Shown: positions 32,216-61,555 of the stretch, in pieces
Position numbering within the stretch: position 1 is the stretch's first letter
Layout of the letters: each line of letters opens with the position of its first letter
NCBI GenBank assembly: GCA_903882645.1
Contig: CAIRXZ010000148.1
Coordinates: forward strand, 6,554-70,553
Direction of reading: 5' to 3'
DNA length: 64,000 bases
DNA from: an uncultured Acidobacteriia bacterium
Lineage (GTDB): Bacteria > Acidobacteriota > Terriglobia > Bryobacterales > Bryobacteraceae
The notes under the pieces: generated by a model
Told to the model about the DNA's origin: nothing
The model's database searches: none
The model's input: the letters and a program-made list of their open reading frames with translations, nothing else
Made by a program: the position numbers and the translations under genes

Positions 32216-32914
32216 TTACTTGAATCTCAGCGTGATCCTGTTCTCCCTGCCGCCATAGGTCAGTTCCAGATCCTTCATCTTCTGCTTCTCCATGACGAAG
32301 TAGAGCAGGCCGGCGAGCGGCTGATCGGTTTTCTTCGCGGGGAGCTGCTTGTCGGTCAGCGTGCGCAAGAGCGGGTTGTCCTTGTCACCGGCCCCCGTCT
32401 CCGCGGTCGCGGCGGTCCCGCCTGCATTGCCCTCGTTCCACGTGCCGCTCTGGACGCCGCCGCCGGAATTAGGCGGGTAACCCCCCGGCGGATAGCCGGC
32501 GCCCGGCCCGCTTCCCGGAGGATATCTGCCGGGGTAGGATCCGGGCGGGCCTGGGCCAGCCGATGCGCCGGTCCGGTCCGCCTGCTGGTGAATGATCAGC
32601 GCGTCGCGCCCGGCGATCTGGCTGGGCGCGTACGGCGTGGCCTTCTCGCCATCCACGTCGGTGCGGATCTGAAAATCGTCGCGATCGATAACGACCTCTT
32701 TGCCGTACTTCGGCTCGATCTTCACATCGGCCACGATATAGTGCCCGCCCAGGTCGTCGCCGACCATCCCCTTGACGCCCGCGGGATCGATGTAAAGCGT
32801 TACCGTGAGCGCCACATCCAGGTTCTCGCCCTTCGCCGTAGCTACCGTCCTCGGGGCCGCGGAGACCAGCAGCGCGGAGAGCGGCAGACACGCGAACAAG
32901 CGGGCGTAGATCAT
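32216..32914 (-). CDS. Secreted protein with Gly/Pro/Tyr-rich linker, unknown function
   Basis: Inner ATG at 32914 with a signal peptide (MIYARLFACLPLSALLVSAAP). Two beta-rich halves are joined by PGPPGSYPGRYPPGSGPGAGYPPGGYPPNSGG. Confidence 0.55.
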   Translation of the reverse strand: MIYARLFACLPLSALLVSAAPRTVATAKGENLDVALTVTLYIDPAGVKGMVGDDLGGHYIVADVKIEPKYGKEVVIDRDDFQIRTDVDGEKATPYAPSQIAGRDALIIHQQADRTGASAGPGPPGSYPGRYPPGSGPGAGYPPGGYPPNSGGGVQSGTWNEGNAGGTAATAETGAGDKDNPLLRTLTDKQLPAKKTDQPLAGLLYFVMEKQKMKDLELTYGGRENRITLRFK

Positions 32915-33071
32915 GACGCAGCCTCTGGCCACAATTATATGCCCACGGGAACGGCCGGCACGGACCTTTATGAAGCCGTATTCCTCGGTGGACTCGGCGC
33001 GCTGGATCACTGCGGCCGGTACAGCCCGAGAGCCTGGCAGGCGCGGACCTGCTGATCTTCTTTAATTGCCC

Positions 33072-33791
33072 TCAGGATGCAGTTTCTGGCTTGACCGCGC
33101 GGATGATTTCTCCGCCACAGCCATTGCAATAGTTCGCATCGGCCATCACGACCCGGCCACAGTGGTTGCAGAATCGCTGATCGACCGCGGCGATGAAAAT
33201 GTACCCGCAGAAGCGGCATTTGCGGGCTTCGGCTCGGATCTCTTCCGCGCAATCGGGGCATTTCTTTAGGGCGGCTTTGAATAGGCCGCCACAACCGGGG
33301 CATTCCTTGGCATCCTTTTCCACTGGGGTCTTGCACTTTGGGCAATGGACGCCGCTATCCAGCGCCGCGCGGACGCCATACCCGCAGGCGGGGCATCGGA
33401 CGGCGCCGGGTTTCACGTTTGCGTGGCAGGACGGGCAGAGCATGGCTGCGCAGGTCGGGCAGGATGTGACGCCAGGGGGAATGATCGTGTGGCACTGGAG
33501 GCATCGGCGCACGTCAATCGACGCCCGGGCGGAGATCGGCTGCCGAGTGGACTCTGCCTCGGGGCCAAGATCGGCCTGGCATTTCGGGCAGCGCTCCGCC
33601 TTCGCGGGGATCGTTTGCTTGCAGTGCGGGCACTGGCGACCCTCGAATACCGCAAAGGCAAGGGCCAGTCCAATTGGGCCGAGAGAGAATCCCAAAGCAA
33701 GGCCCGCGCACCCGCTTCCGCCGCGCTGTTGGGCGACGGCCATCGCGCCGAAGCCGCAAAGAAGCCACAGCAGAATTACGACTATTTCCAT
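33072..33791 (-). CDS. Membrane-anchored protein with six tandem zinc-ribbon (CxxC-x10-12-CxxC) units
   Basis: Two N-terminal TM helices, then CPHC..CPKC, CLQC..CPTC, CPSC..CPAC, CPKC..CPGC, CPDC..CRFC and CNHC..CNGC. Confidence 0.7.
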   Translation of the reverse strand: MEIVVILLWLLCGFGAMAVAQQRGGSGCAGLALGFSLGPIGLALAFAVFEGRQCPHCKQTIPAKAERCPKCQADLGPEAESTRQPISARASIDVRRCLQCHTIIPPGVTSCPTCAAMLCPSCHANVKPGAVRCPACGYGVRAALDSGVHCPKCKTPVEKDAKECPGCGGLFKAALKKCPDCAEEIRAEARKCRFCGYIFIAAVDQRFCNHCGRVVMADANYCNGCGGEIIRAVKPETAS

Positions 33792-34222: not shown

Positions 34223-34285
34223 CCGGGCTGACGCCCGGCTGATGACGCCAGAAGGCGTCATCGCGGGCCAAAAGGCCCGGCCCCA
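34223..34285 (+). repeat. 63-nt triple-hairpin repeat (copy b)
   Basis: 58 of 63 nt identical to 13349..13411, in the same orientation. Overlaps the last 28 nt, including the stop codon, of gene 34258..36282. Confidence 0.9.
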
Positions 34286-36282
34286 CGGCTCCGGACGCGC
34301 CGCGCGATCGGCCCAATGAATCGCCAGCACGCCGCCAAGACCACCGTCAGGAACGACATTCCCCACATGATTTTCATCTCCGCGCCGCCGTCGTAGGAGA
34401 GACGCACCTCGCAGGTTCCGGAGCAATGTGGCGAGATCGTGAGGAACCCCAGGCCGTCGGATTCCACGGCCCGGCTGGAGCCGCCGACCGAGGCGCGCCA
34501 CCCGGGATGATAGGATACCTGCACGCTGATCAGATCCTTCGGGCCAAGCGGGCCGGTGATGACCGCTTCCGACGGGTTCGTCCAACGCTCCTCGAGCTTC
34601 GGTTTGGCGGGGTCTTCAATCGCGGCGACGTACGGCGCCAGCGCGGCGATATCCAGGCCGTTCTCCGGAAACCGGGTGATCAGGTCCTTGACTTCCACCG
34701 CGTGCGCGAGCGCGGGAGAGCGCTGCGGAACCTCGTAGATCACATCGTCGCCATCGCGCCACAGCTCGCGCAGGCGCCCCTCGAATTTTGCGGGGTGATG
34801 ATAGTCGTGGTATTCGTCGGTGCTGCGCGGGCCGTTGACGGCGACGGTGGTGGCGCCCAGGGCCTGCATCCACGCCAGCGAGATCTCGAACTCGCGGCCG
34901 GCGGCGTTATCGTCGCTGCCCACCTGGTAGTGTGCGAGCACGCCTCCGTTCTTGAGAATCCCCTGCAAGCAGCAGCCGGCCACTTGGGGCGTATCGGTGA
35001 AGGCGTTGAGCCACCAGGCGGTGGATCCCAGGAGAAACGTCCGTCCGCCGGGGCTGTGGGCGTCGATCCAGCGGGCGATCTTGTACTGGCTCGTCTTGGC
35101 GACGTCGATGCGCTGGATCAGGTCGTGCGCGTAGGCGCGATAGGCGGGGACCTGAAATGCGCAGAACGCTACGAAAACCCCGAAGGCCGCGTTCCGCGCG
35201 TACGTCCGTCCCCCGATAAGCCACTCGGCGCCGAGGACAAGCGTTCCGGCCATCCCCATCTCCATGGCGACCTGAAAGCGGGTTGGCTGCGCGAGCAGGG
35301 TAAGACCGAACCAGAAACTGCCGAGCGCGATGCAGCCCGTGAAGAAGAACAGCAGGAGAAAGAACCGGACAGCGCGGGGAATCGCGAATCGTTCGCACAT
35401 CCGGGACAACGCCACGGTCAGCCCGGCGACGATCGCGAGAGCGACCAGGTGGCGCAGACCGAACGCGTTCTGCGGCTGCATCCGCTGAGTGTTGTCAAGC
35501 AGCGTGAACACGGTGGATGGCGGCATCGCCGGGCCGATGAGAAGGTACCCGCCAACCGCCAGCGCCGCCGCCGCGATGCAGCGCCGGCGCGCGTCCACGG
35601 CCCCGCATGCCACCACATAAGCGACCACGGCGAAAGCGAGGACGATGGCGGCGGGAATGTTGGTCAGCGGCACGGCGGCCATCGCGCAGGCAGCCAAAGC
35701 GTAGGCCGGCAGAGTGCGCCGTTCGAGCGCGAAATCGAGAGCCAGAATCGCCAGCGGCACAAGCGTCAATCCGGCCATGTGAGGCGAATCGGCGTAATGC
35801 ACAGCAGCGTGCAGACGGCTGGCGTGAAACGGCCCGCCTATGTCGGCTCGGATCGCGCCAGCAAGCCAGGCGGAGGGCGATGCCAGCGAGTACAGCAGCC
35901 CCGTGGCAAGACTCGCCCATAGGTTCCGGCTCAAACGCAGGGCCAGCCAGAAGAGCGTAACCGGTCCAAGGCAATAGGCGCAGCCGGTTGCCATGTGGTA
36001 GGCCCGCGCCGCATTCATTCCGCCCAATCCGGTGAGCGCCGCCGTGACGAGATGCAGCGCAGGCTCGTACACATTGCCGATGGGCATTCCGCCGAACCAC
36101 AGCGGCCACCACGCGATATGCGGCCAGTGCGCGGCGGCATAACGGCCCATGGCGATGTAGATGCCCGCTATCGAGCTCATCTCGTCCAGGTATTGGGAGT
36201 TGAACAGGCGCCACGCGATCCAGACGTTGAGAGCCAGCAAACCCGCGCTCAGAACGGCGACGCGCTTCGGGGAGAGCATCAC
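34258..36282 (-). CDS. Large polytopic membrane protein with C-terminal extracytoplasmic domain (GT-C-like), unknown function
   Basis: 674 aa with ~14 hydrophobic helices, including WWPLWFGGMPIGNVYEPALH near the N-terminus, and a ~270-aa soluble C-terminal domain. GTG at 36282 and ATG at 36279 are adjacent starts. Confidence 0.6.
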   Translation of the reverse strand: MMLSPKRVAVLSAGLLALNVWIAWRLFNSQYLDEMSSIAGIYIAMGRYAAAHWPHIAWWPLWFGGMPIGNVYEPALHLVTAALTGLGGMNAARAYHMATGCAYCLGPVTLFWLALRLSRNLWASLATGLLYSLASPSAWLAGAIRADIGGPFHASRLHAAVHYADSPHMAGLTLVPLAILALDFALERRTLPAYALAACAMAAVPLTNIPAAIVLAFAVVAYVVACGAVDARRRCIAAAALAVGGYLLIGPAMPPSTVFTLLDNTQRMQPQNAFGLRHLVALAIVAGLTVALSRMCERFAIPRAVRFFLLLFFFTGCIALGSFWFGLTLLAQPTRFQVAMEMGMAGTLVLGAEWLIGGRTYARNAAFGVFVAFCAFQVPAYRAYAHDLIQRIDVAKTSQYKIARWIDAHSPGGRTFLLGSTAWWLNAFTDTPQVAGCCLQGILKNGGVLAHYQVGSDDNAAGREFEISLAWMQALGATTVAVNGPRSTDEYHDYHHPAKFEGRLRELWRDGDDVIYEVPQRSPALAHAVEVKDLITRFPENGLDIAALAPYVAAIEDPAKPKLEERWTNPSEAVITGPLGPKDLISVQVSYHPGWRASVGGSSRAVESDGLGFLTISPHCSGTCEVRLSYDGGAEMKIMWGMSFLTVVLAACWRFIGPIARRVRSRGAGPFGPR

Positions 36283-36656: not shown

Positions 36657-37865
36657 ATGCTAAAGAATCAGCACTATAAGTCGGGTATGCAAGCTCTTGC
36701 CCGAGCCTCCGCCGCCACCCTGATCGTGTGTGCCTGCCTTGGGCCTCTGCCCGCCCAGGAACCGGCCGCGCCAGACCCAACGGCGCTGGTCCGCACGGCC
36801 GATGCCAGCTATTTGCGTGGCGATTACGAAGCGGCCCGGCAGTCGCTTGCGGCGGCCTGGGATCTTCTGCAACAGACGCCGCCCGAAAACCCCGCGCGCT
36901 ACGACGTCCTGAAGCGCCTCGCGTCGGTGCGCGCCGCGGCCGGAGACCTCACCGACGCCGGCAAGTATCTCCAACTGGCCATCGACTGGCGCAAGAGCGC
37001 GCTCGGTCCGGACGATCCTAAGATCGCCGACGATCTGCTCGTTTCCGTGGCGCTCCTCCGGGGCGCAAAGCAGTTCGACCGGGCGTTTGCGCTCTTCCCG
37101 AACATCATCGCCACCCACGCCCGCGCCTACGGGTTCGACAGCCCGCCGGTGGCCGACGACTACTCCCGCATGGCGCAGATTCTCATAGACCAGAAGCAGC
37201 CCGGCGACGCCGCCGCCGCACTCGATGTGGCCCTCGGAGTCCGCACCCGGCTGGCCGGCCCGCTTGACGTTTCTTTGATTCCGATTCTCGACCGGCAGGG
37301 CGAGATTCAGATCGCGCTGCGAGATTATGAGAAAGCCGAGGCGACCTACCGGCATGCGCTGGCCATTCGGGAGACGCTGTATGGAAAGGACGATGCCGAT
37401 CTCATCGCCACGCTCGATGGTCTCGCCTTCTCCTGCTTCAGCGAGAACAAGTTCGACCTTGCAGAGCCGATCTACAAGAGGCTGCTCGCGCTGTGGATCC
37501 AGTCGGCCGGCAACGGCCACCCCATGATCGCCATCACGCTGGACAAGATCTCCGCATTCTACGTAGCGTGGAGGAAATTCGGCCGGGCCAAGGAGTCCGC
37601 CGATCGGGCCAACGTGGTTCGCGCCAGCTTCCTGGCCAACGGGCTGGCCGCGGAGGCTTCCGAGCAGGTGGCGGAGGAAAACACCGGCGCCGCCAAGGCC
37701 CTCTACCAGCGCGTCATCAAGGTCCTCGACCCGCCCGATCCCATGTACGAAAAACTGCGCGCCGATACCGCGCTCATCCTGCAAAAAATGGACGAGCTGA
37801 CGCCGCCGCGCCCTCAGCCCAAGAAGCCCTCCGCGGCCGGCAAGAAGCCCGGCGCGGGTTTGTAG
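36657..37865 (+). CDS. Secreted tetratricopeptide-repeat protein
   Basis: Signal peptide plus repeated TPR_12-like units (Y..A...Y..AL.I....LG..HP). Confidence 0.75.
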   Translation: MLKNQHYKSGMQALARASAATLIVCACLGPLPAQEPAAPDPTALVRTADASYLRGDYEAARQSLAAAWDLLQQTPPENPARYDVLKRLASVRAAAGDLTDAGKYLQLAIDWRKSALGPDDPKIADDLLVSVALLRGAKQFDRAFALFPNIIATHARAYGFDSPPVADDYSRMAQILIDQKQPGDAAAALDVALGVRTRLAGPLDVSLIPILDRQGEIQIALRDYEKAEATYRHALAIRETLYGKDDADLIATLDGLAFSCFSENKFDLAEPIYKRLLALWIQSAGNGHPMIAITLDKISAFYVAWRKFGRAKESADRANVVRASFLANGLAAEASEQVAEENTGAAKALYQRVIKVLDPPDPMYEKLRADTALILQKMDELTPPRPQPKKPSAAGKKPGAGL

Positions 37866-37951: not shown

Positions 37952-38827
37952 ATGAGGTTCCCTATGGACCGTCCGGCCACCGCCAATCCCGCCACAGCCC
38001 GGGAGATCATCCTCGAAATCGTGCGGAATATGCGTGAGGGTCTGGAGCCGCTGCATTACTCGACCCTCGCGCCGGCCATCTACCATGTGTACCTGCATCC
38101 CGGAGACATGGAGCGTCTTCGCGGCATCTTTCCCCGCATCGCCGATGAGGCGCGCCGGGCCCTCGACGCGGAGCTGGACTCGCTCAACCGCGCCTCGTTC
38201 GCGGAGCGCTTGAAGCTCGCCCGCCGCTCCGAGCCTCGTATCGCGCCGCCGGAGGGCGGCTGGCAGGTCCAAATTCTGGAAAACACCGACGACGACGCCG
38301 AGCCCGGCGACATCGTGATCTATTCGGAGCTGGCCATGCCCGCCAAACCCGAGTTCGGTGGCGGAGCGATGACCAAGCGCATCGCCACGCGCCGTTTGGG
38401 CGGCGCGCAAACCGCCGCGCAGCCGGTCTATGAACAGGCCCCCAGCCCCGAGGCCGCGCCGCAAGGCGCCTGCGCCGTGATCGAGTACGAAGACAACGGC
38501 GGCAAGAAGACCTACCGCATGACCAAGGACGAAATCGTGGCCGGGCGCGGCGGGCGCGACTATTGGACCGACCTCAAGTTCGACACGCTGCCCGACGTTT
38601 CGCGCGAGCATTTCCGGCTGCGGCGCGATCCCGCGAGCGGCAGGTTTTTCCTCAAGGACCTGAGCCGTCTCGGCACTACCGTCAATGGCGAGAAGGCCCC
38701 CTCGAGCGTCGAGTTCGTCGAGGGCGAGAAGCGCGACCGCAACCTCGAAGCGCCGGTCCCGGACCGGGCGCGCATCGGCTTGGCGGATGTGCTCTTTCTC
38801 GATTTCCGAAGCGCATCGAATGGCTAA
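37952..38827 (+). CDS. FhaA-like protein (DUF3662-like N-terminus + C-terminal FHA domain)
   Basis: N-terminal LAPAIYHVYLHPGDMERL pattern. C-terminal FHA core IVAGRG...VSREHFRL...FLKDLSRLGTTVNGE. Confidence 0.8.
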   Translation: MRFPMDRPATANPATAREIILEIVRNMREGLEPLHYSTLAPAIYHVYLHPGDMERLRGIFPRIADEARRALDAELDSLNRASFAERLKLARRSEPRIAPPEGGWQVQILENTDDDAEPGDIVIYSELAMPAKPEFGGGAMTKRIATRRLGGAQTAAQPVYEQAPSPEAAPQGACAVIEYEDNGGKKTYRMTKDEIVAGRGGRDYWTDLKFDTLPDVSREHFRLRRDPASGRFFLKDLSRLGTTVNGEKAPSSVEFVEGEKRDRNLEAPVPDRARIGLADVLFLDFRSASNG

Positions 38828-40337
38828 GACAAAGGTAAAGTGCGCGGGGGCGAGCGATCTGGGCCTGATGCGCCGGAACAACGAAGACGCGTTTTACATC
38901 GACGCCGACCGCGGCATTTTCCTGGTGGTGGACGGCATCGGAGGGCAGGCGGCCGGCGAAAAGGCCGCGGAGATCGCGATCGAGCGCGTGCGCGCGCGCC
39001 TGGAGCGGCGAACCGGCGCGGCGGAGCAGCGCGTTCGCGAAGCCATCGCCGTGGCGAACAACGAAATCCTGCGCGTGGCGCGCTCCAACAAGGAGTGGGA
39101 AGGCATGGCCTGCGTGCTCACGCTGGCGGTGCTGGAAAATGGCTCGGCCGTGGCGGGGCACGTGGGCGATTCGCGCCTGTACCACGTTCGCGGCGGCCAG
39201 ATCCGCAAGATCACGCACGACCATTCGCCGGTGGGCGAGCGCGAAGACAGCGGCGAGCTGACCGAAACCGAGGCCATGCGCCACCCCCGCCGCAACGAGG
39301 TGTTCCGCGACGTAGGCTCGGAAGAGCACGCCCCCGACGACCCCGACTTCATCGAGATCCAGCGCTTTCCCTTCGAGCCGGACAGCGCACTGGTACTGTG
39401 CAGCGACGGACTGAGCGACCAGGTGGCTTCGCAGCGGATTTGCGACGAGGTAATTCGCAACGCCGGATCTCCCGATTCGGCGGCGCGCCAGTTGATCGGA
39501 CTGGCGAACCGCGCCGGCGGCAAGGATAATGTCACCGTCGTGGTGGTGGAAGGCGAGGAGTTCGCGGATGCGGCGCGTCCCGAGATGGGCGGCCGCGGGG
39601 CCTTTCCCCGCTGGGCGCAACTGGCGGCCGGATGCGTCCTCTCGCTGGGTCTGGGATTTCTGGCGGGCCGGATGTCGGCGCCCAAGCCGCCCAAGCCGGC
39701 GCCGCCCGCGCGCGTCCTGACGGCCGGCCCCGGCGCGGCGTTCGGGAGCATTTCCGAGGCCCTGGCGCAGGCCCGCCCAGGCGATGCGGTCGAGGTATTG
39801 GCCGGGGAGTACGCCGAACAGGTGCGGCTCAAGAGCGGCGTGACCTTGCGCGCCCGCGACGCCATTCTCCGCGCCGCGCCGATGGGCAACGGCCCCGCCG
39901 TCATCGCGGAGCGGGTTGCGAACGCCCGCGTCACGGGCTTCCGTATTGAAGCCGGCGACGACGCGCCGCTACCGGTGGGAATCCTCCTGACCGATTCGGA
40001 CGTGGAGTTGGAGGACATCGAGGTGTCCGGCGCGGGTGTCGGAATCGAGATCCGCGGCGCCGCCAAACCCGTGCTGCGCGCCAACTCGATCCACGATTGC
40101 ACGGACGTTGGCATCCTGATTTCCGGCCCGTCGGAGCCCTGGATCTCGCACAATACGCTGCGCGGCAACACCATCGGGCTGGCCGCCCGCGACGGCGCGC
40201 GGCCCGCCTTGTCCGGGAACGTTTTCGACGGGAACGGCGCGACCCTGCCGCCGGAGATTTCCATGGCCGATGTGCGCGCGCGCAATTTGTTCGTGAACAT
40301 CAAACCCGCCCGCTCCCGAGGCCGCAAGAAGCCATGA
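38820..40337 (+). CDS. PP2C Ser/Thr phosphatase fused to a TM helix and an extracytoplasmic parallel beta-helix domain
   Basis: Inner ATG at 38820 (8-nt overlap with the FHA gene). PP2C motifs RRNNEDAF, VVDGIGG, GDSRLY and GGKDNVTVVVV. TM helix WAQLAAGCVLSLGLGFLAG. Then repeated 22-25-aa beta-helix turns (VTGFRIEAG, VELEDIEVSGAGVGIEIRG, NSIHDCTDVGILISG, NTLRGNTIGLAA). Confidence 0.8.
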   Translation: MAKTKVKCAGASDLGLMRRNNEDAFYIDADRGIFLVVDGIGGQAAGEKAAEIAIERVRARLERRTGAAEQRVREAIAVANNEILRVARSNKEWEGMACVLTLAVLENGSAVAGHVGDSRLYHVRGGQIRKITHDHSPVGEREDSGELTETEAMRHPRRNEVFRDVGSEEHAPDDPDFIEIQRFPFEPDSALVLCSDGLSDQVASQRICDEVIRNAGSPDSAARQLIGLANRAGGKDNVTVVVVEGEEFADAARPEMGGRGAFPRWAQLAAGCVLSLGLGFLAGRMSAPKPPKPAPPARVLTAGPGAAFGSISEALAQARPGDAVEVLAGEYAEQVRLKSGVTLRARDAILRAAPMGNGPAVIAERVANARVTGFRIEAGDDAPLPVGILLTDSDVELEDIEVSGAGVGIEIRGAAKPVLRANSIHDCTDVGILISGPSEPWISHNTLRGNTIGLAARDGARPALSGNVFDGNGATLPPEISMADVRARNLFVNIKPARSRGRKKP

Positions 40338-42346
40338 TCGCCCCGGCCGGCCGCAGACTCGGCAAGTACGAGATCCGCCGCAAGCTCGGCCGCGGCGGAA
40401 TGGCCGATGTCTACCTGGCGGAGGACGCGGAAAGCAGAGGCCTGGTCGCGCTGAAGCTCATCGAACACAGCGAGGACGCCGATACGCGCGATTTCATCGA
40501 CGCCGAGCGCCGCGGCGCGGGATTGCAGGCGCGCCTGGCGGCGGTCGATTCGCGCGTGACCCGCGTCTACGACGTGGGCGACATCGACGGCTTCTTCTTC
40601 GTCGCCATGGAATACATCGATGGCCAGGATCTCGCGGACCTGATGCGGCGCGGCCCGCTGGCGGTGGAGTTCGCCGCGGATGTGGCCATCGCGGTGGCCG
40701 GAGCGCTGGAGAGCGCACACGGTTTGCACGTGGCCATCGAGGGCAAGGACTTTCAGGGCATCGTGCACGGCGATATCAAGCCGAAGAACATCCGCATCGA
40801 TTCCCACGGCGAAGTGCGCGTGCTCGATTTCGGTATCGCCAAGGCGCTCTCACTGTCGCGCCGGCTCACGCGCAACGAATTCGGCAGCGTCCCGTACGCT
40901 TCGCCGGAGCGCCTGGATTCGGGCCAGGTGGACGCCCAGTGCGATCTTTGGTCGCTGGCCGTGATGTTCTACGAGATGGTCACGGGCCTGCAGCCCTACC
41001 AGGCCGCGAACACCGAACACCTGGAGCGCATGATCCGTTCGCGGATTCCGCCGCCTCCCGCCCCCGACCCTTGCCCGGAGCCGCTGCGCCGCATCCTGGC
41101 GAAGGCCATGGCGCCGGATCCCGCCCTGCGCTATGCCACCGCGGGCGACCTTGCCGCCGACCTCGGCGCCTTCCGCCGCGGCGAGCCGGTGCGGGCCATG
41201 ACCGAGGATCTCGAGGCCACCGGCCGCACCCCGGCGATAGGGGACGATGCCACCCGCCGCACCGCGCCACGCCCAGGCGCGCCGGGGGAAGAGACGCGCC
41301 AAACCGCGCCGGCGGGGCAGAGCATCGTTTCTCGTGGTCCGCCGCCGCCCGTGGCCCGCGCCGAATGGCCGTACGCCAGCGGCCGCGAGCCGCCCGGCGC
41401 TTTGACCGTCATGACCATGCGCGGGGTCGCGGCGTTGGCAGTGGCCGCGGCGATCTTCCTTGCGTGGTCGGCGGTTTCCGCCTATCGGCTGTACGGGCGC
41501 GGCCAGGATTTCGAGCGCCAGGTGGAGACCGAACAGCTCACCGACCTGGACCAGATCTGGGGCAGGTGGACGGAACTTTCCAAGGGGCATTCCTCGTCTT
41601 GGCTGTTACGGGGACCGGGAGACGCGATGAAGCGGAAATTCGCCGAGGCGGCCGGACGCGTGATTGACTCCTACCGCAACGACGCGCAGCAGTTGTACGA
41701 GGCCGATTGGCGCCGCGCCCGCACGTACCTGACCCGCGCCTTGGCGGCCGGACCCGATGGAACCGTCCTCGGAGATCTGCGCCTGTGCGACGGGCACCTC
41801 GCGCGCATCAATGGCACGGCCCATCGCAGCCCCGCGGCGTTGAACGAGGCGGTTCAGGACTTCAACGAAGCCCAAAGCCTGATGCCGAACTCGCCCGACC
41901 CGGAGCTGGGCTTGGCGCGCGTCTACGTCTACGGCCTCAAGGACATCGACAAAGCCAACGAGGCGCTTCAGCAAGCCGCCAAGCGCGGATACACGCCCGG
42001 CAACCGCGACAAGGCGCAGCTTGCGGACGGATATTGCGACCGGGCCGACCGGCTTTGGTGGGACTCCCGCAACGTGCGCGGTTTGCCTCAGGAGAAGGAC
42101 CGGATCGGGCGCGCGGCCGCGGATTATCGAACCGCCCTCGGACTGTACCAGAGCGTCGCGCCCTATGGAAACGCGAACGCCCGGATCGTGCGCATCCAGA
42201 ACGACCTCGAGAGCGTGAACACGCGGTTGCAGCAGATCGAGCTGAGCGAGGCCGGAGGGCCGGCGGTGGGATCCGCCATCAACGCCGTCCGCCGCTTGTT
42301 GCAGCAGATCGCGCCGAGCAAAGCGGGAGGGCCGGTGCAGCAGTGA
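40334..42346 (+). CDS. Hanks-type Ser/Thr protein kinase with TM helix and extracytoplasmic helical (TPR-like) domain
   Basis: ATGA overlap with the PP2C gene. GRGGMADVYLA, ALK, HGDIKPKNI, DFGIAK and APE-like SPE motifs. TM helix VAALAVAAAIFLAWSAV. Confidence 0.88.
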   Translation: MIAPAGRRLGKYEIRRKLGRGGMADVYLAEDAESRGLVALKLIEHSEDADTRDFIDAERRGAGLQARLAAVDSRVTRVYDVGDIDGFFFVAMEYIDGQDLADLMRRGPLAVEFAADVAIAVAGALESAHGLHVAIEGKDFQGIVHGDIKPKNIRIDSHGEVRVLDFGIAKALSLSRRLTRNEFGSVPYASPERLDSGQVDAQCDLWSLAVMFYEMVTGLQPYQAANTEHLERMIRSRIPPPPAPDPCPEPLRRILAKAMAPDPALRYATAGDLAADLGAFRRGEPVRAMTEDLEATGRTPAIGDDATRRTAPRPGAPGEETRQTAPAGQSIVSRGPPPPVARAEWPYASGREPPGALTVMTMRGVAALAVAAAIFLAWSAVSAYRLYGRGQDFERQVETEQLTDLDQIWGRWTELSKGHSSSWLLRGPGDAMKRKFAEAAGRVIDSYRNDAQQLYEADWRRARTYLTRALAAGPDGTVLGDLRLCDGHLARINGTAHRSPAALNEAVQDFNEAQSLMPNSPDPELGLARVYVYGLKDIDKANEALQQAAKRGYTPGNRDKAQLADGYCDRADRLWWDSRNVRGLPQEKDRIGRAAADYRTALGLYQSVAPYGNANARIVRIQNDLESVNTRLQQIELSEAGGPAVGSAINAVRRLLQQIAPSKAGGPVQQ

Positions 42347-42373
42347 AAAGCCGTTGTGGCGCACGCCCGTGGG

Positions 42374-42457
42374 GCAGGCTTTTCAGCCTGCGGACCCGCT
42401 TTCCAGCGGGTCCAGCCGGCCGGAAGGCCGGCTTGCGGGCAAGATTGCCCGCCCCAC
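42374..42457 (+). repeat. Array of four consecutive GC-rich hairpins (last ends in GCCCCAC)
   Basis: gcaggct-tttc-agcctgc; ggacccgc-tttcca-gcgggtcc; gccggcc-ggaa-ggccggc; gcgggca-aga-ttgcccgc+cccac. Lies between the kinase stop and the SEDS::PBP start. Confidence 0.85.
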
Positions 42458-42470
42458 CCAGGTACCGCCC

Positions 42471-45400
42471 ATGGCTATAACTCGCAGCCGAATCACGGAC
42501 CGCGCGGAAATCCGGCGTCCGCGGGGAGGCCGCGCGGCCTGGCGGCGCACCGAGTTTGTGTGGATGCTGGCGGCCGGCATCCTGGCGGGAATCGGCCTGT
42601 TCCAGGTTTACAGGGCCAAGTCCCAGCCGTTCGAGGAGATCTCGAAGGCTCTGGCGGCGAAGCGCGCGATCGATCTGAACGGTCTTTCCGCGCGCGAGGA
42701 CTTGCTGCCCGCGCTCGCCATGTTCCCCGACCCTTCGGAGCGCGAATTCGTGGCGCGCAAGATCTACTACCTCTCCGGCGGGCTTGCGAACGTGGGCGCC
42801 ATCGCGCGCATCCGCGCGACCGCCGATGAAATCGGCCGCGGCCGCGCGTTGCAGGGCCTTCGCGCCCGGCTTGGCGGACGCGATTCGATGCCCCTGCTCA
42901 GCCCCGAGCAGCTTCGCGATCTGAAGCCGATGTTCGTGGTGCGCCGGCCGGAACGGTTCCGGCGCGCGTTCCTGCTGTGGACCGGCATCTTCTTCGCGGC
43001 GTTCCTGCTGGCGCACGCGTGGTGGAGCATCCGCGGGTTTCGCGGCGACCAGTGGATGCTGCCCGCGCTCCTGCTGCTCACCGGCGCCGGGCTGACTCTC
43101 ATGACCGGGATGCGCGACCCGCTTCGCGATAACCTCCTGTTCGTGGATTTCGCCCAAGGCGTGGCGGGCGGCGCGGCGTTGTTGGTGGCCGCCAGCGCGC
43201 TCGATTTCGAACGCCTGCTCGGGAAATTGAGCTTCGTCCCGCTGCTCGGCAGCCTGGCGCTTTCCGTGCTGCTGATCCTGTTTGGCAATGGCCCGGGATC
43301 GAGCGACGCCAAGGTCAACCTCCTGGGCTTTCAGCCGGTGGAGTTGATTCGCATCCTGCTGGTCCTGTTCCTGGCCGGGTATTTCGCGAACCGCTGGGAC
43401 GTGCTGCGGCACGCGCGCGAGACGCGCGCATCCGTCTCCGCGCTGACCAGGCATCTCGATATCCCGCCGCTCGAGTACACCATTCCGGTGCTGGCCTCGG
43501 TCGCGCTGTCGCTGGTCTTCTTCTTCCTGCAAAAGGATATGGGGCCGGCGCTGGTGTTCGGCTGCCTGTTTCTCACGCTCTACGGCATGGCGCGCGGGAG
43601 CGCGTTCGTGCCCGCGGCCGGCCTCGCGCTGCTGGCCGCGGGTTTTGTTGCCGGGTATGCGATCGGCGTTCCGCACACGGTGAGCCAGCGCGTCGCCATG
43701 TGGCTTTCTCCATGGGACAACCTGGTACACGGGGGCGACCAGTTGGCGCACTCGCTGTGGGCGTTCTCCACCGGCGGCTTGTGGGGCGCCGGAATCGGGC
43801 TGGGCAGCCCGCAGCTCGTACCCGCGGCGCACACCGATCTGATCCTCTCCGCGTTGGGCGAGGAACTCGGTTTTTGGGGCGTGGCGGCGGCGTTCGCGCT
43901 CTACGCCATGATCGTCTGGCGCGCGTTTCGCATCGCCCTGCGCGCGCGCACAGACTACGAGTTCTTCCTGGCGGCCGGACTGGCGGCGGCCACGGCGTTG
44001 CAGTTGCTCGTCATCGCCTGCGGCGCGCTGGGCGTCATGCCGCTCACCGGCGTGGTGACGCCGTTCCTGAGCTACGGGCGCTCGGCCATGCTGGCCAATT
44101 TCCTGGTGATTGGAATTCTGCTTTCGATTTCGGACCGGGGCGGGGAAACGGACCGAACCATTCCTTTCCGGCCGGCGGCGATGGTAGCCGGCGCCGTCTT
44201 CGCCGCCGTGGGCGCCGCCGCGCTGGCCAAGGCCGGCTACGTGCAAGTGGCGCGCGACGAGGCGGTGATGGCGCAGGGCACGCTGGTGGTGCAGGCCGAC
44301 GGCGCGAGGCGCTATCAGTACAACCCGCGATTTCAAGAGGTCATGAACGAGATTCCCAAAGGCTCCATTTACGACCGCAACGGCTTGCCACTCGCCAGCA
44401 GCGATTGGAGCGAACTCGAGAAGCACCGCGCCGAGTACCGTCAGCTCGGCATCGATATCGACTTGGCCTGCGCGCGCGCGGAGAGCCGCCACTACCCGTT
44501 CGGCGGGCTGATGTTCGACCTGCTCGGAGACCTGCGCACGCGCGAGCGATGGGGCGCGGGCAATACGTCGTTCGTGGAGCGCGATTCGGCGCGCAGGCTG
44601 CGCGGCTACGACGACCGGCCCACGCTGGTGGAAGTGAGGAATCCCAAGACCAAGGCGATGGAGCGCGTCCTCCGCTACGATTACCGCGAGCTCGTGCCGC
44701 TGCTGCGCCATCGCCACGAGCCCGGCAGCCCCGAGGTGCGCCGCGTGCTCGAACGTCCGCGCGACATCCACATGTCGGTGGACGCGCGGCTTCAAGTGCG
44801 CGTTGGCGAGATCCTGCGCCGGCAGTTGCAGCAGGCCAAGGTGGACAAGGGCGCGGCAGTCGTGCTGGACCCGGCCACGGGCGACCTGCTCGCCGCGGTG
44901 AGCATTCCGCAGCCGGACGAAGCCGCCGCGCAGGGCGCCGGCCAGCGGGCGGACGCCGCCGGCGACGCCGCCAATCCTTATCTCGACCGCGCGCGCTACG
45001 GCCTGTACCCGCCCGGTTCCACGTTCAAAGTAGTGACCGCCATGGCCGCGCTGCGCAAAGATCCGGGGTTGACGCGCAAGACCTACGAGTGCATCCGGCT
45101 GCCCGGCGGGCGCGTGGGCAACACGATCAAGGGATCGAGGCGGCCGATCCGCGACGACGTGGAGGACAAGAACCCTCACGGAACGGTCGACATGGAGCGG
45201 GGCATCGTGGTCTCGTGCAACGCGTACTTCGCCCAACTGGGAACCTACGACGTGGGCGCGGAAGCGCTGCTCGACGCGGCCAACCTGTTGGGCATCGCGG
45301 CCGCCTCGCCGGCGACCGCCGAGCAATTGCGCAAGTCGCTGCCGCAGTCTTCCTACGGTCAGGGGCAGGTGGTGGCGACGCCGTTCCAAATGGCGCGGGT

Positions 45401-45788
45401 GGCGGCCACCGTGGCCAACGGCGGGGCCATGCCGGGGGGCCGCTGGATCACCGATGAAACCAATTCGCGGACCGCCGAGCCGCGCGCCGTGCTGCCGCCC
45501 GAAGCCGCGGGAACCCTGGCGCGCTTCATGCGCGAAGTGGTGACCTCCGGGACGGGACGCCGCGCGGCCGGCGCGAGCGTGGCGATAGCCGGCAAGACCG
45601 GCACGGCCGAGCTTGCCGATGCGCCGTCGCACGCCTGGTTCATCGGTTACGCTCCGTATGGAGCGGGCGCGCGCAAGATCGCCTTCTCCGTGCTGGTGGA
45701 GAATGGAGTATACGGCGGCGCCGCCGCCGCGCCGGCCGGGGCCGCGATCGCCGACGCCGCGGCGAAGTTGGGGCTGATCCAGCCATGA
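42471..45788 (+). CDS. Fused SEDS (FtsW/RodA) glycosyltransferase - class B PBP transpeptidase
   Basis: Inner ATG at 42471. A ~190-aa N-terminal extension, then a SEDS polytopic core (…FQPVELIRILLVLFLAGYF…, …TDLILSALGEELGFWG…, …GVMPLTGVVTPFLSYGRSA…). Then a PBP dimerisation-like region and a transpeptidase with STFK, SCN and KTGT motifs. Confidence 0.85.
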   Translation: MAITRSRITDRAEIRRPRGGRAAWRRTEFVWMLAAGILAGIGLFQVYRAKSQPFEEISKALAAKRAIDLNGLSAREDLLPALAMFPDPSEREFVARKIYYLSGGLANVGAIARIRATADEIGRGRALQGLRARLGGRDSMPLLSPEQLRDLKPMFVVRRPERFRRAFLLWTGIFFAAFLLAHAWWSIRGFRGDQWMLPALLLLTGAGLTLMTGMRDPLRDNLLFVDFAQGVAGGAALLVAASALDFERLLGKLSFVPLLGSLALSVLLILFGNGPGSSDAKVNLLGFQPVELIRILLVLFLAGYFANRWDVLRHARETRASVSALTRHLDIPPLEYTIPVLASVALSLVFFFLQKDMGPALVFGCLFLTLYGMARGSAFVPAAGLALLAAGFVAGYAIGVPHTVSQRVAMWLSPWDNLVHGGDQLAHSLWAFSTGGLWGAGIGLGSPQLVPAAHTDLILSALGEELGFWGVAAAFALYAMIVWRAFRIALRARTDYEFFLAAGLAAATALQLLVIACGALGVMPLTGVVTPFLSYGRSAMLANFLVIGILLSISDRGGETDRTIPFRPAAMVAGAVFAAVGAAALAKAGYVQVARDEAVMAQGTLVVQADGARRYQYNPRFQEVMNEIPKGSIYDRNGLPLASSDWSELEKHRAEYRQLGIDIDLACARAESRHYPFGGLMFDLLGDLRTRERWGAGNTSFVERDSARRLRGYDDRPTLVEVRNPKTKAMERVLRYDYRELVPLLRHRHEPGSPEVRRVLERPRDIHMSVDARLQVRVGEILRRQLQQAKVDKGAAVVLDPATGDLLAAVSIPQPDEAAAQGAGQRADAAGDAANPYLDRARYGLYPPGSTFKVVTAMAALRKDPGLTRKTYECIRLPGGRVGNTIKGSRRPIRDDVEDKNPHGTVDMERGIVVSCNAYFAQLGTYDVGAEALLDAANLLGIAAASPATAEQLRKSLPQSSYGQGQVVATPFQMARVAATVANGGAMPGGRWITDETNSRTAEPRAVLPPEAAGTLARFMREVVTSGTGRRAAGASVAIAGKTGTAELADAPSHAWFIGYAPYGAGARKIAFSVLVENGVYGGAAAAPAGAAIADAAAKLGLIQP

Positions 45789-46552
45789 GCATTTTTTCGG
45801 AGATCGAGAAAACCATCGAGCGCGGCTTCCGCCACTGGACCGAGCGCGTCTTCGGACCGGCCGATGCGGACCAGTTGACGCTGACGCACCGCGCGATTCT
45901 GGCGGAGATCGAAACCAGGATCCAAACCGCGGCGCGCGGCCGGCGCGTGTTCCCGTATCCGCGGATCGCGGTGACGCTGGTCTCGGCGGACGCGGACCGC
46001 CGCGCGCTCTACCGGACGGCGTTCGGCGAAGGCGGGCGGCTGGAGAGCGACGTTCGAGAGGTTCTGGAAGGCTCGCGCTGCGAGGTCCCGCGCGGCTTTT
46101 CCGTGGAGGTGCGCACGGCGGAGAGCGGGCCGCGGGCGTTCGAGATCGAGTACGGCGCGGAGCTGCGCGCGAGCGAGCCGGCCGCGCCGGCCCGCGTGGT
46201 TATCGTTCGCGGCAAGGCGGAGCGCGCCGAGTACGCGCTGGAGAAGCCGCGCACGAACATCGGCCGCACGGCCGAGCTGACCGACGCCGGACAGCGCGTG
46301 GCGCGGCGCAACGACATCGTATTCGAGGAGGGCGCCGACGAAGCCAACGCCACCGTCTCCCGCGGCCACGCGCACATCCGCCTGGAGGCCGGCGAATACC
46401 GCATCCGCGACGACGGCAGCGAATACGGAACGCGGGTTTTCCGCGCCGGCCGTTCGATCGAGGTCCCCGCCGGGAACCGCCGCGGAGAGAAACTTCGTCC
46501 GGACGACGAGATCTACCTGGGCCGCGCCTGCATGCGTTTCGAGCGCGGCTGA
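45785..46552 (+). CDS. Second FhaA-like protein (DUF3662-like N-terminus + FHA)
   Basis: ATGA overlap with the SEDS::PBP gene. MSIFSEIEKTIERGFRHW N-terminus. FHA core NIGRT...VSRGHAHI...YRIRDDGSEYGTRV. Confidence 0.82.
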   Translation: MSIFSEIEKTIERGFRHWTERVFGPADADQLTLTHRAILAEIETRIQTAARGRRVFPYPRIAVTLVSADADRRALYRTAFGEGGRLESDVREVLEGSRCEVPRGFSVEVRTAESGPRAFEIEYGAELRASEPAAPARVVIVRGKAERAEYALEKPRTNIGRTAELTDAGQRVARRNDIVFEEGADEANATVSRGHAHIRLEAGEYRIRDDGSEYGTRVFRAGRSIEVPAGNRRGEKLRPDDEIYLGRACMRFERG

Positions 46553-46621
46553 ACCGGGTCGATTGAATGGCGCGATTTGACACCCGGCATGGCCGTCTGA
46601 CAGAATTAAAAGCGGCGTTGC

Positions 46622-46697
<76 letters not shown>

Positions 46698-46720: not shown

Positions 46721-48742
46721 TAGCCTGACTTTCGCAGTTGACGACAGTTTTCCGCCATTTTGGGGTGGTTTCGTCGCGCAAGTCCTTGCGCGTCAATGAC
46801 GGCCTCTCGCCACCGCGTGTAGGGCAGACCTACCCTCTTTTCAACGGGCGAAAACTCTGGCATTCTGCCGATAGCGATGCATCTGAAAACGCACCGGCGG
46901 AACAAAGACGGCAAGGAGCATCGCTATTTCAGCGTGGTCGAGAACCGGCGCCTGCGCACCGGGAAGATGGCTCAGCGCCGCGTGCTGTACCTGGGCGAGA
47001 TCAACGACAGCCAGCAAGCCGCGTGGCGCAAGACGCTGGAAGTCTTCGATGAGAGCGAGCAACGGTTCACTGAGCTGAGCCTGTTTCCGGAAGACCGCGA
47101 CCTTCCGCGCGACGCGGTCAACAGCATTCAGATCAAGCTCGACCAGATGGAGCTGCATCGTCCGCGGGCTTGGGGCAACTGTTGGCTGGGCTGCGAGCTC
47201 TGGCGCCAGTTGCGGCTGGACGAGTTTTGGAGTGCGCAGTTGCCATCCCAGCGGGAGGCCGTGCCTTGGGAGAGGGTGTTGCAGTTGCTGGTGGTAAATC
47301 GGCTGATCGATCCTGGCAGCGAGTTCCGGCTGCATCGGCAGTGGTTCGACCAGAGCGCGATGGCGGAGTTGTTGGGGGTGGATTTTGCGGTTGCCGAAAA
47401 GGACCGGCTGTACCGCTGCCTGGACCGCATTGGCGATCGCAAACAGGAGTTGTTCGTGTATCTGCGGCAGCGCTGGCAGGACCTGTTCGGCGCGCACTTC
47501 GACATTCTGCTCTACGATCTGACCAGCACCTATTTTGAGGGCGAGGCGGAGGAGACGCCCAAGGCGAAGCGGGGATATAGCCGGGACCACCGGCCGGATT
47601 GCCTGCAGGTGGTGCTGGCGCTGGTGATCACGCCGGAGGGGCTTCCCCTGGCCTACGAGGTAATGGACGGCAACACCTCGGATCGCACGACGCTGCGCGG
47701 ATTTCTGGAGCAGGTCGAGAAGATCCACGGCAAGGCGCGGCGCGTGTGGCTGATGGATCGCGGCATCCCGACCGAGGAGGTCCTGGGAGAGATGCGCGCC
47801 GCCGGCGACGTGTTCTATCTGGTGGGAACGCCGCGGGGCAAGATTCAACGGTACGAGAAGAAGTGGCTGGCCTTGCCCTGGCAGAAGGTGCGCGATTCGG
47901 TGGAGGTGAAGTTGTCCGCCGAAGACGGCGAGTTGTACGTGCTGGCCAAGAGCGAGGGGCGGCGCGCCAAGGAGAGGGCGATCCGGAGGCGCAAGCTGGC
48001 GCGGCTGTTGTGGAAGCTGCGCGCGATGCGGAGAAGTTGTCCGGCGCGCGACCAGTTGCTGCTGCGCATCGGCGCGGCCAAGAAAGAGGCCGGCCGGGCG
48101 TATGGCTTCGTGCGGATTTCGTTGCCCAAGGACGGCGCGGAAGTCACCCGCCGCAGTTTCACTTTCGCCGTGGACCGGGACAAACTTGGGAAGGCAGAAC
48201 GGCGGGACGGCCATTACCTGCTGCGTTCGAATCTGGCGGGCGAGGATCCGGCCGTGCTGTGGGATCGTTACGTTCAGCTGACGCAGGTGGAGGCCGCGTT
48301 CAAAACTATGAAAAGCGAGTTGGGCCTGCGTCCAATCTATCACCAGGTCGCACAGCGCGTGGAGGCGCACATCCTGGTGGCGTTTCTGGCGTACTGTCTG
48401 ACGGTGACTCTGAGGCAGCGGCTGCAAGCGCTGGCGCCTGGTTTGACGCCGAAGGCGGTGCTGGAAAAGCTGGCCGCGATCCAGATGTTGGATGTGTGCT
48501 TCCCGACCACCGACGGGCGGTGGCTGATCATGCCGCGCTATACGCAACCCACGCCGGAACAGCAGGTCCTGTTCCACACGCTCAAGCTCAATCTGCCTTC
48601 CCAGCCGCCACCCAAAATCAAGGTCCGCGCCGAGAGCGAGCCTGCCCAAAGGCTCCGTTTGTAGGGCAGACCTTTTCGATGTCTCCGCTGAAAAACAAGG
48701 AGTTAAGCTGCCCCCGACCCCCGAACTGCGAAAGATCGGTTA
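46721..48742 (+). mobile_element. IS1634-family (IS4-related) insertion sequence, ~2.0 kb
   Basis: Imperfect terminal inverted repeats TAgCCtgaCTTTCGCAGTT (46721-46739) and AACTGCGAAAGatcGGtTA (48724-48742) flank a single transposase ORF. Inserted 25 nt after tRNA-Asn. No target duplication is obvious. Confidence 0.7.
46877..48664 (+). CDS. IS1634-family DDE transposase
   Basis: 595 aa. The N-terminus MHLKTHRRNKDGKEHRYFSVVENRRLRTGKMAQRRVLYLGEI matches the family-typical K-x-H-x-Y-W/F-S-L/V-V-E...R-Q/R-R-V-x-Y-LGE opening. Confidence 0.85.
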   Translation: MHLKTHRRNKDGKEHRYFSVVENRRLRTGKMAQRRVLYLGEINDSQQAAWRKTLEVFDESEQRFTELSLFPEDRDLPRDAVNSIQIKLDQMELHRPRAWGNCWLGCELWRQLRLDEFWSAQLPSQREAVPWERVLQLLVVNRLIDPGSEFRLHRQWFDQSAMAELLGVDFAVAEKDRLYRCLDRIGDRKQELFVYLRQRWQDLFGAHFDILLYDLTSTYFEGEAEETPKAKRGYSRDHRPDCLQVVLALVITPEGLPLAYEVMDGNTSDRTTLRGFLEQVEKIHGKARRVWLMDRGIPTEEVLGEMRAAGDVFYLVGTPRGKIQRYEKKWLALPWQKVRDSVEVKLSAEDGELYVLAKSEGRRAKERAIRRRKLARLLWKLRAMRRSCPARDQLLLRIGAAKKEAGRAYGFVRISLPKDGAEVTRRSFTFAVDRDKLGKAERRDGHYLLRSNLAGEDPAVLWDRYVQLTQVEAAFKTMKSELGLRPIYHQVAQRVEAHILVAFLAYCLTVTLRQRLQALAPGLTPKAVLEKLAAIQMLDVCFPTTDGRWLIMPRYTQPTPEQQVLFHTLKLNLPSQPPPKIKVRAESEPAQRLRL

Positions 48743-53542: not shown

Positions 53543-53737
53543 GGCTCAGTGTAGCAGGCGCGCGCTCTCCAACCCACCCCGGCGTGGGGTGGACCGCGGC
53601 CGGTTGCCGCGAGTTTCCGTCCGGCCGGGACTAGTGCGGTAATGGGACTGACGTGACGGCGAAATCCCCCCGCGGGGCGATGATTTTGCTAATATGCTGA
53701 AGTAGCGGTATTTCCGCGTTTCTTGCTGCAAACTCGT

Positions 53738-60354: not shown

Positions 60355-60574
60355 GGTTCGATTATCGCAAGGGATACGCGCCGGTGGCCGGTAATGTTCC
60401 CTGGCATGCATGTCTCCGCCGTGGCGGCCGGGCATGCCCGCCTCCCGCCTGGCGACCGAAACGTCCCGGGAAAGACCCGTGACCGCAAGAGAGCGGCGCT
60501 CGCACGCCATGCCGCACTCCCGTTCCGTCCGGGGCCGCCGCGGGCGCCCGGCGGGCGCCTGCTACCATCTAGGC

Positions 60575-61381: not shown

Positions 61382-61447
61382 GTGGCGCGGACGATCGTTT
61401 TTCGTCGTCTGCGTCGGCAGGCCACAAGAAACGATGGCCTGCCCCAC
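61382..61447. repeat. Inverted pair of hairpin-GCCCCAC repeats
   Basis: 61382..61412 (inverted, degenerate: gcagacgacgaaaaacgatcgtccgcgccac) and 61416..61447 (ggcaggccacaagaaacgatggcctgccccac). Same paired layout as 36308..36392. Confidence 0.8.
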
Positions 61448-61555
61448 TGTCTGGCTGTGTCCTGGACGCTACGCCGGCATCGTTCTCATCCGCTCAACGG
61501 TCCCTTGAGCGATTCTGGTTTGACACGGCCCGCCGGTGGGGACTACAGTGCCGGT

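Follow-up and report, generated by a model that had tools for sequence, protein, structure and literature searches.

What are the parts of the actinobacterial fhaA-pknB locus doing in an acidobacterium, and which enzyme would they regulate there? The question is raised by five plus-strand genes that fill positions 37952-46552 of the window, i.e., the whole 64,000-nucleotide stretch of DNA from an uncultured Acidobacteriia bacterium analyzed here. These genes encode a forkhead-associated (FHA) domain protein (FHA1), a PP2C phosphatase, a Hanks-type Ser/Thr kinase, a fusion of a SEDS protein with a class B penicillin-binding protein (PBP), hereafter called the synthase, and a second FHA protein (FHA2). 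Judging from sequence comparisons and predicted structures, we consider it reasonably likely that they represent a conserved acidobacterial operon for an accessory, phospho-regulated peptidoglycan synthase, derived from the same ancestral module as the fhaA-pknB locus. The genes and the sites discussed below are arranged as follows (aa, amino acids).

37952..38827, + strand: FHA1, FhaA-like cytoplasmic FHA protein, predicted phospho-Thr reader, 291 aa
38820..40337, + strand: PP2C, membrane PP2C Ser/Thr phosphatase, 505 aa
40334..42346, + strand: kinase, membrane Hanks-type Ser/Thr kinase, 670 aa
41249..41308, + strand: T-R-[RQ]-T motifs of the kinase linker, two copies, candidate autophosphorylation or FHA-docking sites
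42347..42470, + strand: gap, 124 nt, untranslated, with a four-hairpin fold
42471..45788, + strand: synthase, SEDS::class B PBP fusion, 1105 aa
42471..42491, + strand: extreme N-terminal motif of the synthase, M-A-I-T-R-S-R, candidate phospho-acceptor or FHA-docking site
45785..46552, + strand: FHA2, second cytoplasmic FHA protein, 255 aa

All five open reading frames (ORFs) are present at these coordinates, and the junctions that the initial annotation had described as translationally coupled are exact when read from the sequence. The PP2C start lies inside the FHA1 stop, within the 8-nt overlap ATGGCTAA at 38820-38827, and 4-nt ATGA overlaps join PP2C to the kinase (40334-40337) and the synthase to FHA2 (45785-45788). 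Pfam scores were judged against curated cut-offs and NCBIfam scores against equivalog cut-offs; the FHA, PP2C, kinase, SEDS, and transpeptidase domains assigned by the annotation were all recovered above the Pfam cut-offs. In addition, the catalytic motifs are intact in the kinase (VALK, HGD, and DFG), the PP2C (DGIGG and GDSRLY), the SEDS part (HTD), and the PBP part (STFK, SCN, and KTG).

The arrangement is found well beyond this genome. In our survey, a profile of 26 diverse fusions was run against a single genome for each GTDB species and yielded 80 loci (given here as L numbers), whose six-frame ORFs were annotated with profiles built from the window's own domains. The five-gene order recurs in ~17 independent Acidobacteriota genomes (L001-L011, L014-L016, L019, L020, and L082), always as an FhaA-like protein, a PP2C, a Ser/Thr kinase with the same C-terminal domain, a fused synthase with an N-terminal extension, and a second FHA protein. 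Since it recurs with differing flanks, the arrangement is not due to chance. Its hosts are Bryobacterales, Acidobacteriaceae-labeled, and Thermoanaerobaculia metagenome-assembled genomes (MAGs), with further loci on truncated contigs, and the identity of the fusion among these modules goes down to ~44%. L001 lies on an 8.67-Mb contig and has a fusion with 72% identity to that of the window; there, the same five genes, with the same Pfam architectures and the same 8-, 4-, and 4-nt overlaps according to the source gene calls, stand between unrelated flanks; L082 and L083 (Sulfopaludibacter) agree with this arrangement.

Fusion homologs at 69-83% identity carry the source names Bryobacteraceae, Candidatus Sulfopaludibacter, and Solibacter usitatus Ellin6076, which points to a Bryobacteraceae-type organism, in accordance with the acidobacterial host proposed in the initial annotation; since the last of these is cultured, experiments on a homolog are feasible. 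An all-against-all HMMER comparison of 50%-identity cluster representatives revealed dozens of full-length fusions that have 1000-1340 aa and identities as low as 35%, so the fused synthase constitutes a large family, and the continuous fusion ORF is kept in >120 homologs. One genome can hold two modules, as L007 and L016 come from the same MAG (MFD05513.bin.1.7) and represent two whole modules, with fusions 73% and 47% identical to that of the window. The second module type of this MAG lacks the beta-helix of the PP2C, and its kinase carries N-A-T-[IVL]-E instead of T-R-R-T; a paralogous sub-type without the PP2C beta-helix was found in L004, L005, L008, L016, and L017. A full-text literature search combining Acidobacteria with the components retrieved no description of the module in Acidobacteria. 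Fusion genes were also observed with no FHA, PP2C, or kinase neighbor on the same strand, once in an acidobacterial locus (L012) and once in an armatimonadotal one (L021), which shows that the fused synthase is not confined to the module.

The synthase combines FTSW_RODA_SPOVE (PF01098, 174 bits) and Transpeptidase (PF00905, 138 bits) domains in a single ORF. Its SEDS core has the canonical 10 helices (~196-555, with HTD at 454-456) and is followed by a cytoplasmic linker, an anchor helix (568-586), a divergent pedestal (~590-790) with a marginal PBP_dimer match (E = 0.17), and the transpeptidase domain (794-1093, with STFK at 850, SCN at 915, and KTG at 1042). D456, S850, K853, S915, N917, and K1042-T-G are invariant across the 26 diverse fusions. 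Ahead of the core, a cytoplasmic tail (aa 1-28) leads into two extra membrane helices (29-47 and 166-184) with an outside helical insert of ~118 aa (48-165) between them. Residue 41 of Thermus thermophilus RodA aligns with residue 227 of the synthase, and everything before residue ~187, including both of these helices, is therefore extra. The two-helix extension, preceded by RR-x-x-E-L (here WRRTEF), is common to the cluster SEDS proteins of Actinomycetota, Chloroflexota, and Clostridia; in Acidobacteriota, the short outside loop between its helices is expanded into the ~118-aa helical domain. An AlphaFold2 (AF2) model of the whole fusion, built on a shallow alignment (69-83% identity) with a mean predicted local distance difference test (pLDDT) score of 54.7, is informative for the SEDS core and the N-terminal extension only; the SEDS region matches RodA (6PL6_A, TMt 0.79), and the extension has pLDDT values of 75-94.

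Among solved structures, the transpeptidase half is closest in sequence to Mycobacterium tuberculosis PbpA (3UN7/3LO7, 99.9 bits), followed by T. thermophilus PBP2 (75 bits) and by the MrdA proteins. The equivalog cut-offs of NCBIfam are all missed (FtsW, 177.7 of 337.5; RodA, 131.9 of 336.7; MrdA, 174.1 of 455); because of this, and because one MAG holds two paralogous modules, we propose that the synthase is an accessory rather than a housekeeping enzyme. At its extreme N-terminus, the motif M-A-[VI]-T-[RK]-[ST] occurs in 13 of 20 listed N-termini of related loci, in all sub-types, with looser variants in L010, L003, and L013, and conservation at T4 and S6 is 90% or higher across 41 close homologs; the motif is also seen in the diverse 50%-identity cluster representatives. 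Its conservation fixes the start codon of the synthase.

A similar short motif was found in the kinase (Pkinase, 129.7 bits), whose kinase domain (aa 12-268, with VALK at 38-41, VHGDIKPKN at 144-152, and DFG at 165-167) is followed by a disordered juxtamembrane linker, a membrane helix (365-383), and an outside helical, TPR-like domain of ~285 aa that gives weak TPR matches (TPR_19, E = 6e-4). The window kinase has ATRRTA at aa 306-311 and ETRQTA at aa 320-325 of the linker, and two to three [DEA]-T-R-R-T repeats stand in the otherwise unconserved linker of ~9-10 of 18 acidobacterial orthologs. The acidobacterial kinases contain 20 copies of T[RK][RKQ]T in 15,154 aa (background, 1.3e-4 per aa), and the non-acidobacterial cluster kinases contain none in 37,722 aa. 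Short conserved Thr motifs of this kind in cytoplasmic disordered segments would fit phospho-acceptor or FHA-docking sites. The catalytic loop is non-RD, with HGD in essentially all acidobacterial module kinases and HRD in every other cluster kinase sampled. There is no PASTA match, and the PASTA-kinase model NF033483 reaches 219 bits, against a cut-off of 450, over aa 10-380 only. The C-terminal domain of the kinase was not found in any non-acidobacterial locus surveyed.

The phosphatase follows the general PstP layout of a PP2C domain, a membrane helix, and an outside domain. It scores 60.4 bits with PP2C_2, 43.3 with Beta_helix, and 33.8 with NosD, and 199.8 bits with Stp1/IreP, below the cut-off of 230. 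The cytoplasmic PP2C domain (aa 12-244), with its metal-binding motifs DGIGG and GDSRLY, is followed by a predicted hydrophobic helix (~265-283) and a predicted extracytoplasmic right-handed beta-helix of NosD type (aa ~310-475). This beta-helix is present in most acidobacterial loci and missing in one paralogous sub-type and in all non-acidobacterial loci.

The two FHA proteins are the candidate readers. FHA1 matches the Pfam FHA family with 36.2 bits (cut-off 20.7), and its match to FhaA_N is close to the cut-off of 25 (22.3 bits for the whole protein; 24.4 bits, E = 4e-5, for the N-terminal domain alone); an iterated profile of acidobacterial FHA1 N-domains recovers the N-domains of actinobacterial FhaA. 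FHA2 scores 27.0 bits with FHA, and its N-terminal alpha/beta domain (aa 1-125) has no significant Pfam match of its own. The AF2 model of FHA2 (pLDDT 84.3) has an N-domain of alpha-alpha-beta-alpha-beta-beta order and, after it, an FHA sandwich resembling the FHA structures of OdhI, GarA, and FhaA in Foldseek; the matches obtained with the full model are dominated by the FHA domain and are uninformative on the N-domain. For that domain, FhaA_N was matched by 6 of 20 orthologs (best E = 0.0046) and was the sole Pfam family with more than one ortholog; the window protein itself matches with E = 0.12, aligned from profile position 1, and an hhalign comparison with the FHA1/FhaA N-domain profile gave P = 4.7e-4 in a sensible register. 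The N-domain of FHA2 is thus probably a very divergent FhaA_N. A PDB sequence search with FHA1, FHA2, and the FHA2 N-domain profile returned no match to an FhaA N-terminal domain. FHA2 has no hydrophobic segment, and the FhaB model gives 17 bits against a cut-off of 125; by these sequence measures, the protein is soluble and not FhaB-like.

Both FHA domains retain the phosphate-binding Gly-Arg and Ser-Arg-x-His residues. In FHA1 these are GR at 198-199 and SREH at 217-220, followed by SRLGT at 238-242 with Leu for the usual Asn, and in FHA2 they are GR at 160-161 and SRGH at 192-195, followed by SEYGT at 212-216 with Tyr for Asn. The Asn of this beta6-beta7 loop belongs to an invariant STNGT in other phyla; Acidobacteriota have L, N, or F at this position in FHA1 and Y, H, C, or S in FHA2.

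Given these components, how is the module related to known systems? With the fusion as a probe, the FhaA-FhaB-PP2C-RodA-PbpA-kinase loci of Actinomycetota are retrieved, in the order (kinase), FhaA, FhaB, PP2C, SEDS, PBP, kinase (, kinase), with SEDS and PBP fused only in Coriobacteriia-like and a few other lineages. A neighbor-joining tree of the transpeptidase domain, computed with no support values, is coherent by phylum; it places Acidobacteriota together with Armatimonadota and the fused proteins of Coriobacteriia inside the unfused PbpA of Actinomycetota. Because PbpA is the best match, the two-helix N-extension is shared, and the tree is phylum-coherent, common descent with the actinobacterial locus is supported over convergence. 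The same tree hints at no fewer than two independent SEDS-PBP fusions and gives no sign of recent transfer; the fusion would then have arisen more than once.

The mycobacterial locus has been described as a strongly conserved operon with roles in cell morphology, growth, and phospho-regulation (PMC11898655), in which FhaA binds the PknB-phosphorylated forms of MviN and CwlM (PMC11898655) and PstP, co-transcribed with rodA and pbpA, dephosphorylates PbpA in vitro (PMC6554272). The cluster is reported to be conserved in Actinobacteria and a subset of Firmicutes (PMC6554272). As the literature that we searched describes only these groups, the acidobacterial operon would extend this type of module to a diderm soil phylum. 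It shares with M. tuberculosis Rv0020c-Rv0014c (fhaA-fhaB-pstP-rodA-pbpA-pknA-pknB) an FHA protein that is probably of FhaA type, a membrane PP2C, a Hanks kinase, the two-helix N-extension of SEDS, a PbpA-type transpeptidase, and tight packing on one strand. It differs in having one kinase rather than two, which is non-RD, carries a TPR-like domain instead of PASTA repeats, and does not stand at the 3' end. Further differences are the fusion of SEDS and PBP, the ~118-aa outside insert, the beta-helix of the PP2C, the FHA loop Asn that is not conserved, and the diderm host; the membrane-anchored FhaB is replaced by a second soluble FHA protein, whose divergent N-domain is probably FhaA_N-like.

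The initial annotation had portrayed the cluster as an actinobacterial-style locus rebuilt with other architectures, and this description is supported, with caveats. The retrieved fhaA-type loci, the PbpA match, and the shared N-extension bear out the relationship, and the order FHA, PP2C, kinase, synthase, FHA does differ from the actinobacterial one, with a single kinase gene between PP2C and synthase and no FhaB-like protein. The claim of two FhaA-like proteins is likely but not established, as the FhaA_N match of FHA1 is near-threshold and that of FHA2 weak. The initial annotation also held three of the five architectures to be absent from the actinobacterial prototype. The PP2C beta-helix and the kinase lacking PASTA do differ from it; the fusion, which Coriobacteriia also have, is not foreign to Actinomycetota, and the general PstP layout likewise places a membrane helix and an outside domain after the phosphatase domain.

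Two other groups of loci are informative. Chloroflexota (FhaA, FHA, SEDS, PBP) and Clostridia (FHA, SEDS, PBP) have SEDS and PBP genes that belong to the same family as the acidobacterial ones and are immediately preceded by one or two FHA genes; they have no adjacent PP2C or kinase, leave SEDS and PBP unfused, and lack the acidobacterial accessory domains. These reduced loci are L022, L026, L032-L035, L039, L046, L048, L051, L053, L057, L060, L073, L077, and L078. A 2025 survey in Microlife listed 117 SEDS-transpeptidase fusions in InterPro as 'bifunctional class B' proteins, some flanked by kinase and phosphatase genes, with examples from Senegalimassilia faecalis (931 aa) and Pedobacter ginsengisoli (1341 aa) that coexist with canonical FtsW/FtsI and RodA/MrdA; no Acidobacteriota example is named and FHA proteins are not mentioned (PMC12516126). 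These fusions resemble the one described here in joining FTSW_RODA_SPOVE and transpeptidase domains in one polypeptide and in their kinase and PP2C neighbors. They differ in that the Pedobacter protein has two SEDS domains and the Coriobacteriia fusions are, judging from the tree, independent of the acidobacterial ones. SEDS-PBP fusions with kinase and phosphatase neighbors were therefore already known, and what appears new, in the literature that we searched, is the FHA-containing acidobacterial variant, conserved across the phylum.

How might such an operon work? The non-RD membrane kinase would sense an envelope cue through its TPR-like outside domain and would phosphorylate Thr residues at two places, namely the T-R-R-T repeats of its own juxtamembrane linker and the conserved M-A-x-T-[RK]-[ST] tail with which the synthase begins. 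FHA1 and FHA2, both cytoplasmic, would bind these phospho-threonines, either switching the synthase or scaffolding it to partners, and the membrane PP2C would erase the marks, with its outside beta-helix as a possible glycan sensor. We infer the substrates of the kinase, the direction of regulation, and the sensed signal; the same applies to the initial proposal that the module is dedicated to one synthase. A stricter version, possible but tentative, is a minimal and largely insulated phospho-switch for one enzyme, in which the synthase tail and the T-R-R-T repeats would dock two Asn-less FHA domains and the TPR-like domain of the kinase and the beta-helix of the phosphatase would act as antagonistic periplasmic sensors of cell-wall state in a diderm. 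If this were true, the operon would provide a natural one-to-one system for the control of SEDS-class B PBP activity by Ser/Thr phosphorylation. Mycobacterial kinases are pleiotropic and have many targets; the acidobacterial operon packs a writer, an eraser, two readers, and a single-chain synthase together. The candidate phospho-motifs on the synthase tail and kinase linker also allow concrete hypotheses to be framed at the peptide level.

Several points weigh against this scheme. Bacterial Hanks kinases and PP2Cs are typically pleiotropic, and gene adjacency is therefore no proof of a dedicated circuit. Since the loop Asn is replaced in both readers, their peptide recognition may be atypical. 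The paralogous sub-types lack the T-R-R-T repeats and carry the conserved N-A-T-[IVL]-E motif instead. In addition, the transpeptidase half of the AF2 model has pLDDT values below 50 and hence gives no check of an intramolecular arrangement like that of RodA-PBP2.

We regard the main alternative as rather unlikely: the kinase, the phosphatase, and the FHA proteins could be global regulators of the PknB/PstP type that stand beside the synthase by shared ancestry, and the synthase need not be their target. Indeed, PstP and PknB have broad substrate sets in mycobacteria, and FhaA has MviN, CwlM, and many envelope proteins, but not demonstrably RodA or PbpA, as interaction partners (PMC6554272, PMC11898655). 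The FHA-SEDS-PBP core of Chloroflexota and Clostridia, which has no adjacent kinase or phosphatase, further implies that kinase linkage is dispensable. However, the five acidobacterial genes stay together and translationally coupled while the fusion diverges to ~44% identity, whole modules have been duplicated as units within one MAG (L007 and L016), and the Thr motif at the N-terminus of the synthase resembles the kinase-linker repeats, all of which speaks against this alternative.

A second alternative concerns the operon itself, as FHA1-PP2C-kinase and synthase-FHA2 could be separate transcription units here, split by the hairpin-rich gap at 42347-42470. This gap would fold into four GC-rich hairpins inside an outer stem and is very stable (minimum free energy, -89.3 kcal/mol; z = -7.0; 0 of 200 shuffles as stable), and similar GGGGCAGGC...GCCTGCCCC hairpins are intergenic elsewhere in the window, as would be expected of terminator-like or repetitive extragenic palindromic (REP)-like elements. 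However, a terminator, which the initial annotation had named as evidence against a single unit, was looked for, and the gap contains no T-run (i.e., no U-tract in the transcript), no terminator-like call, and no promoter-like site. Stable hairpins with no U-tract are more often mRNA stabilizers or processing sites, which counts against a split. Spacing in the other loci, measured with starts anchored on the conserved N-terminal motif of the synthase, points the same way: a 10-nt overlap joins the kinase and synthase genes in L004-L007, L013, and L016, four further loci show either an overlap or a spacing of 1-34 nt, and long gaps are confined to the window, L001, L008, and L009. The close relatives thus indicate that the genes were ancestrally one operon and that the gap is a lineage-specific insertion into a coupled junction, and we consider separate units improbable.

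The gap, then, does not argue against a single operon, and its interpretation as a terminator was rejected on the missing call and its lineage-specific character. Its sequence is not conserved in L001 or L007, and it matches no Rfam family. It may be a REP-like or mRNA-stabilizing element and may modulate the relative expression of the flanking genes. As a dispersed repeat it was also rejected, for only short similarities of hairpin stems were found elsewhere in the window. Intergenic hairpins with the same GGGGCAGGC...GCCTGCCCC stem as the gap were observed at ~11000-11031 and ~61420-61447 (also 63650-63666), and these hairpins may belong to a family of short palindromes scattered over this genome.

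The weakest alternative, that the fusion is the housekeeping elongation (RodA-PBP2) or division (FtsW-FtsI) synthase and the signaling genes tune normal growth, can draw on FtsW, PBP2/MrdA, and RodA being the best NCBIfam models, on a SEDS fold like the RodA and FtsW structures, and on the conservation of all catalytic residues, and yet it is quite doubtful, given that the equivalog cut-offs are missed by a factor of ~2, that there are no mreBCD, rlmH, or dcw genes near the module in the window or L001, that one MAG carries two paralogous copies, and that published fusions coexist with canonical FtsW/FtsI and RodA/MrdA (PMC12516126). An assignment to Fha/PpkA/PppA of type VI secretion systems was rejected, as was a defense-system kinase, since such neighbor genes are not present and the NCBIfam matches reflect generic kinase similarity far below cut-off.

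At its 3' end, the unit is bounded by a tRNA-Asn(GTT) gene (46622-46696) with its own promoter-like site (46577-46606), followed by a DDE_Tnp_1 transposase gene (46877-48664, 595 aa). This flank is unlike that of L001, which suggests an insertion sequence-associated rearrangement beside the tRNA. On the 5' side, a gene for a 402-aa TPR protein (TPR_12 and TPR_10; 36657-37865, + strand) stops 86 nt before FHA1. In L001, a TPR/TonB_C protein is encoded immediately downstream of the module, and a loose association between TPR proteins and the module is possible.

Farther upstream, a 674-aa ORF (34258-36282, - strand) has a coding-like third-position GC content (GC3) of 0.82 and no Pfam match at E <= 0.001. 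A multi-zinc-ribbon (DZR) protein (33072-33791, - strand) and a HAMP/HisKA histidine kinase with an OmpR-type response regulator (29895-32169, - strand) have no evident link to the module. A 264-aa ORF (32216-33010, - strand) and a 486-aa ORF (61382-62842, + strand) gave no Pfam match when scanned at E <= 0.0001. Downstream, the window encodes an NHL-repeat protein of 1081 aa (53723-56968, + strand) and a PD40/beta-propeller protein (58546-60510, - strand). Such large repeat proteins of secreted type appear to be typical of this genome.

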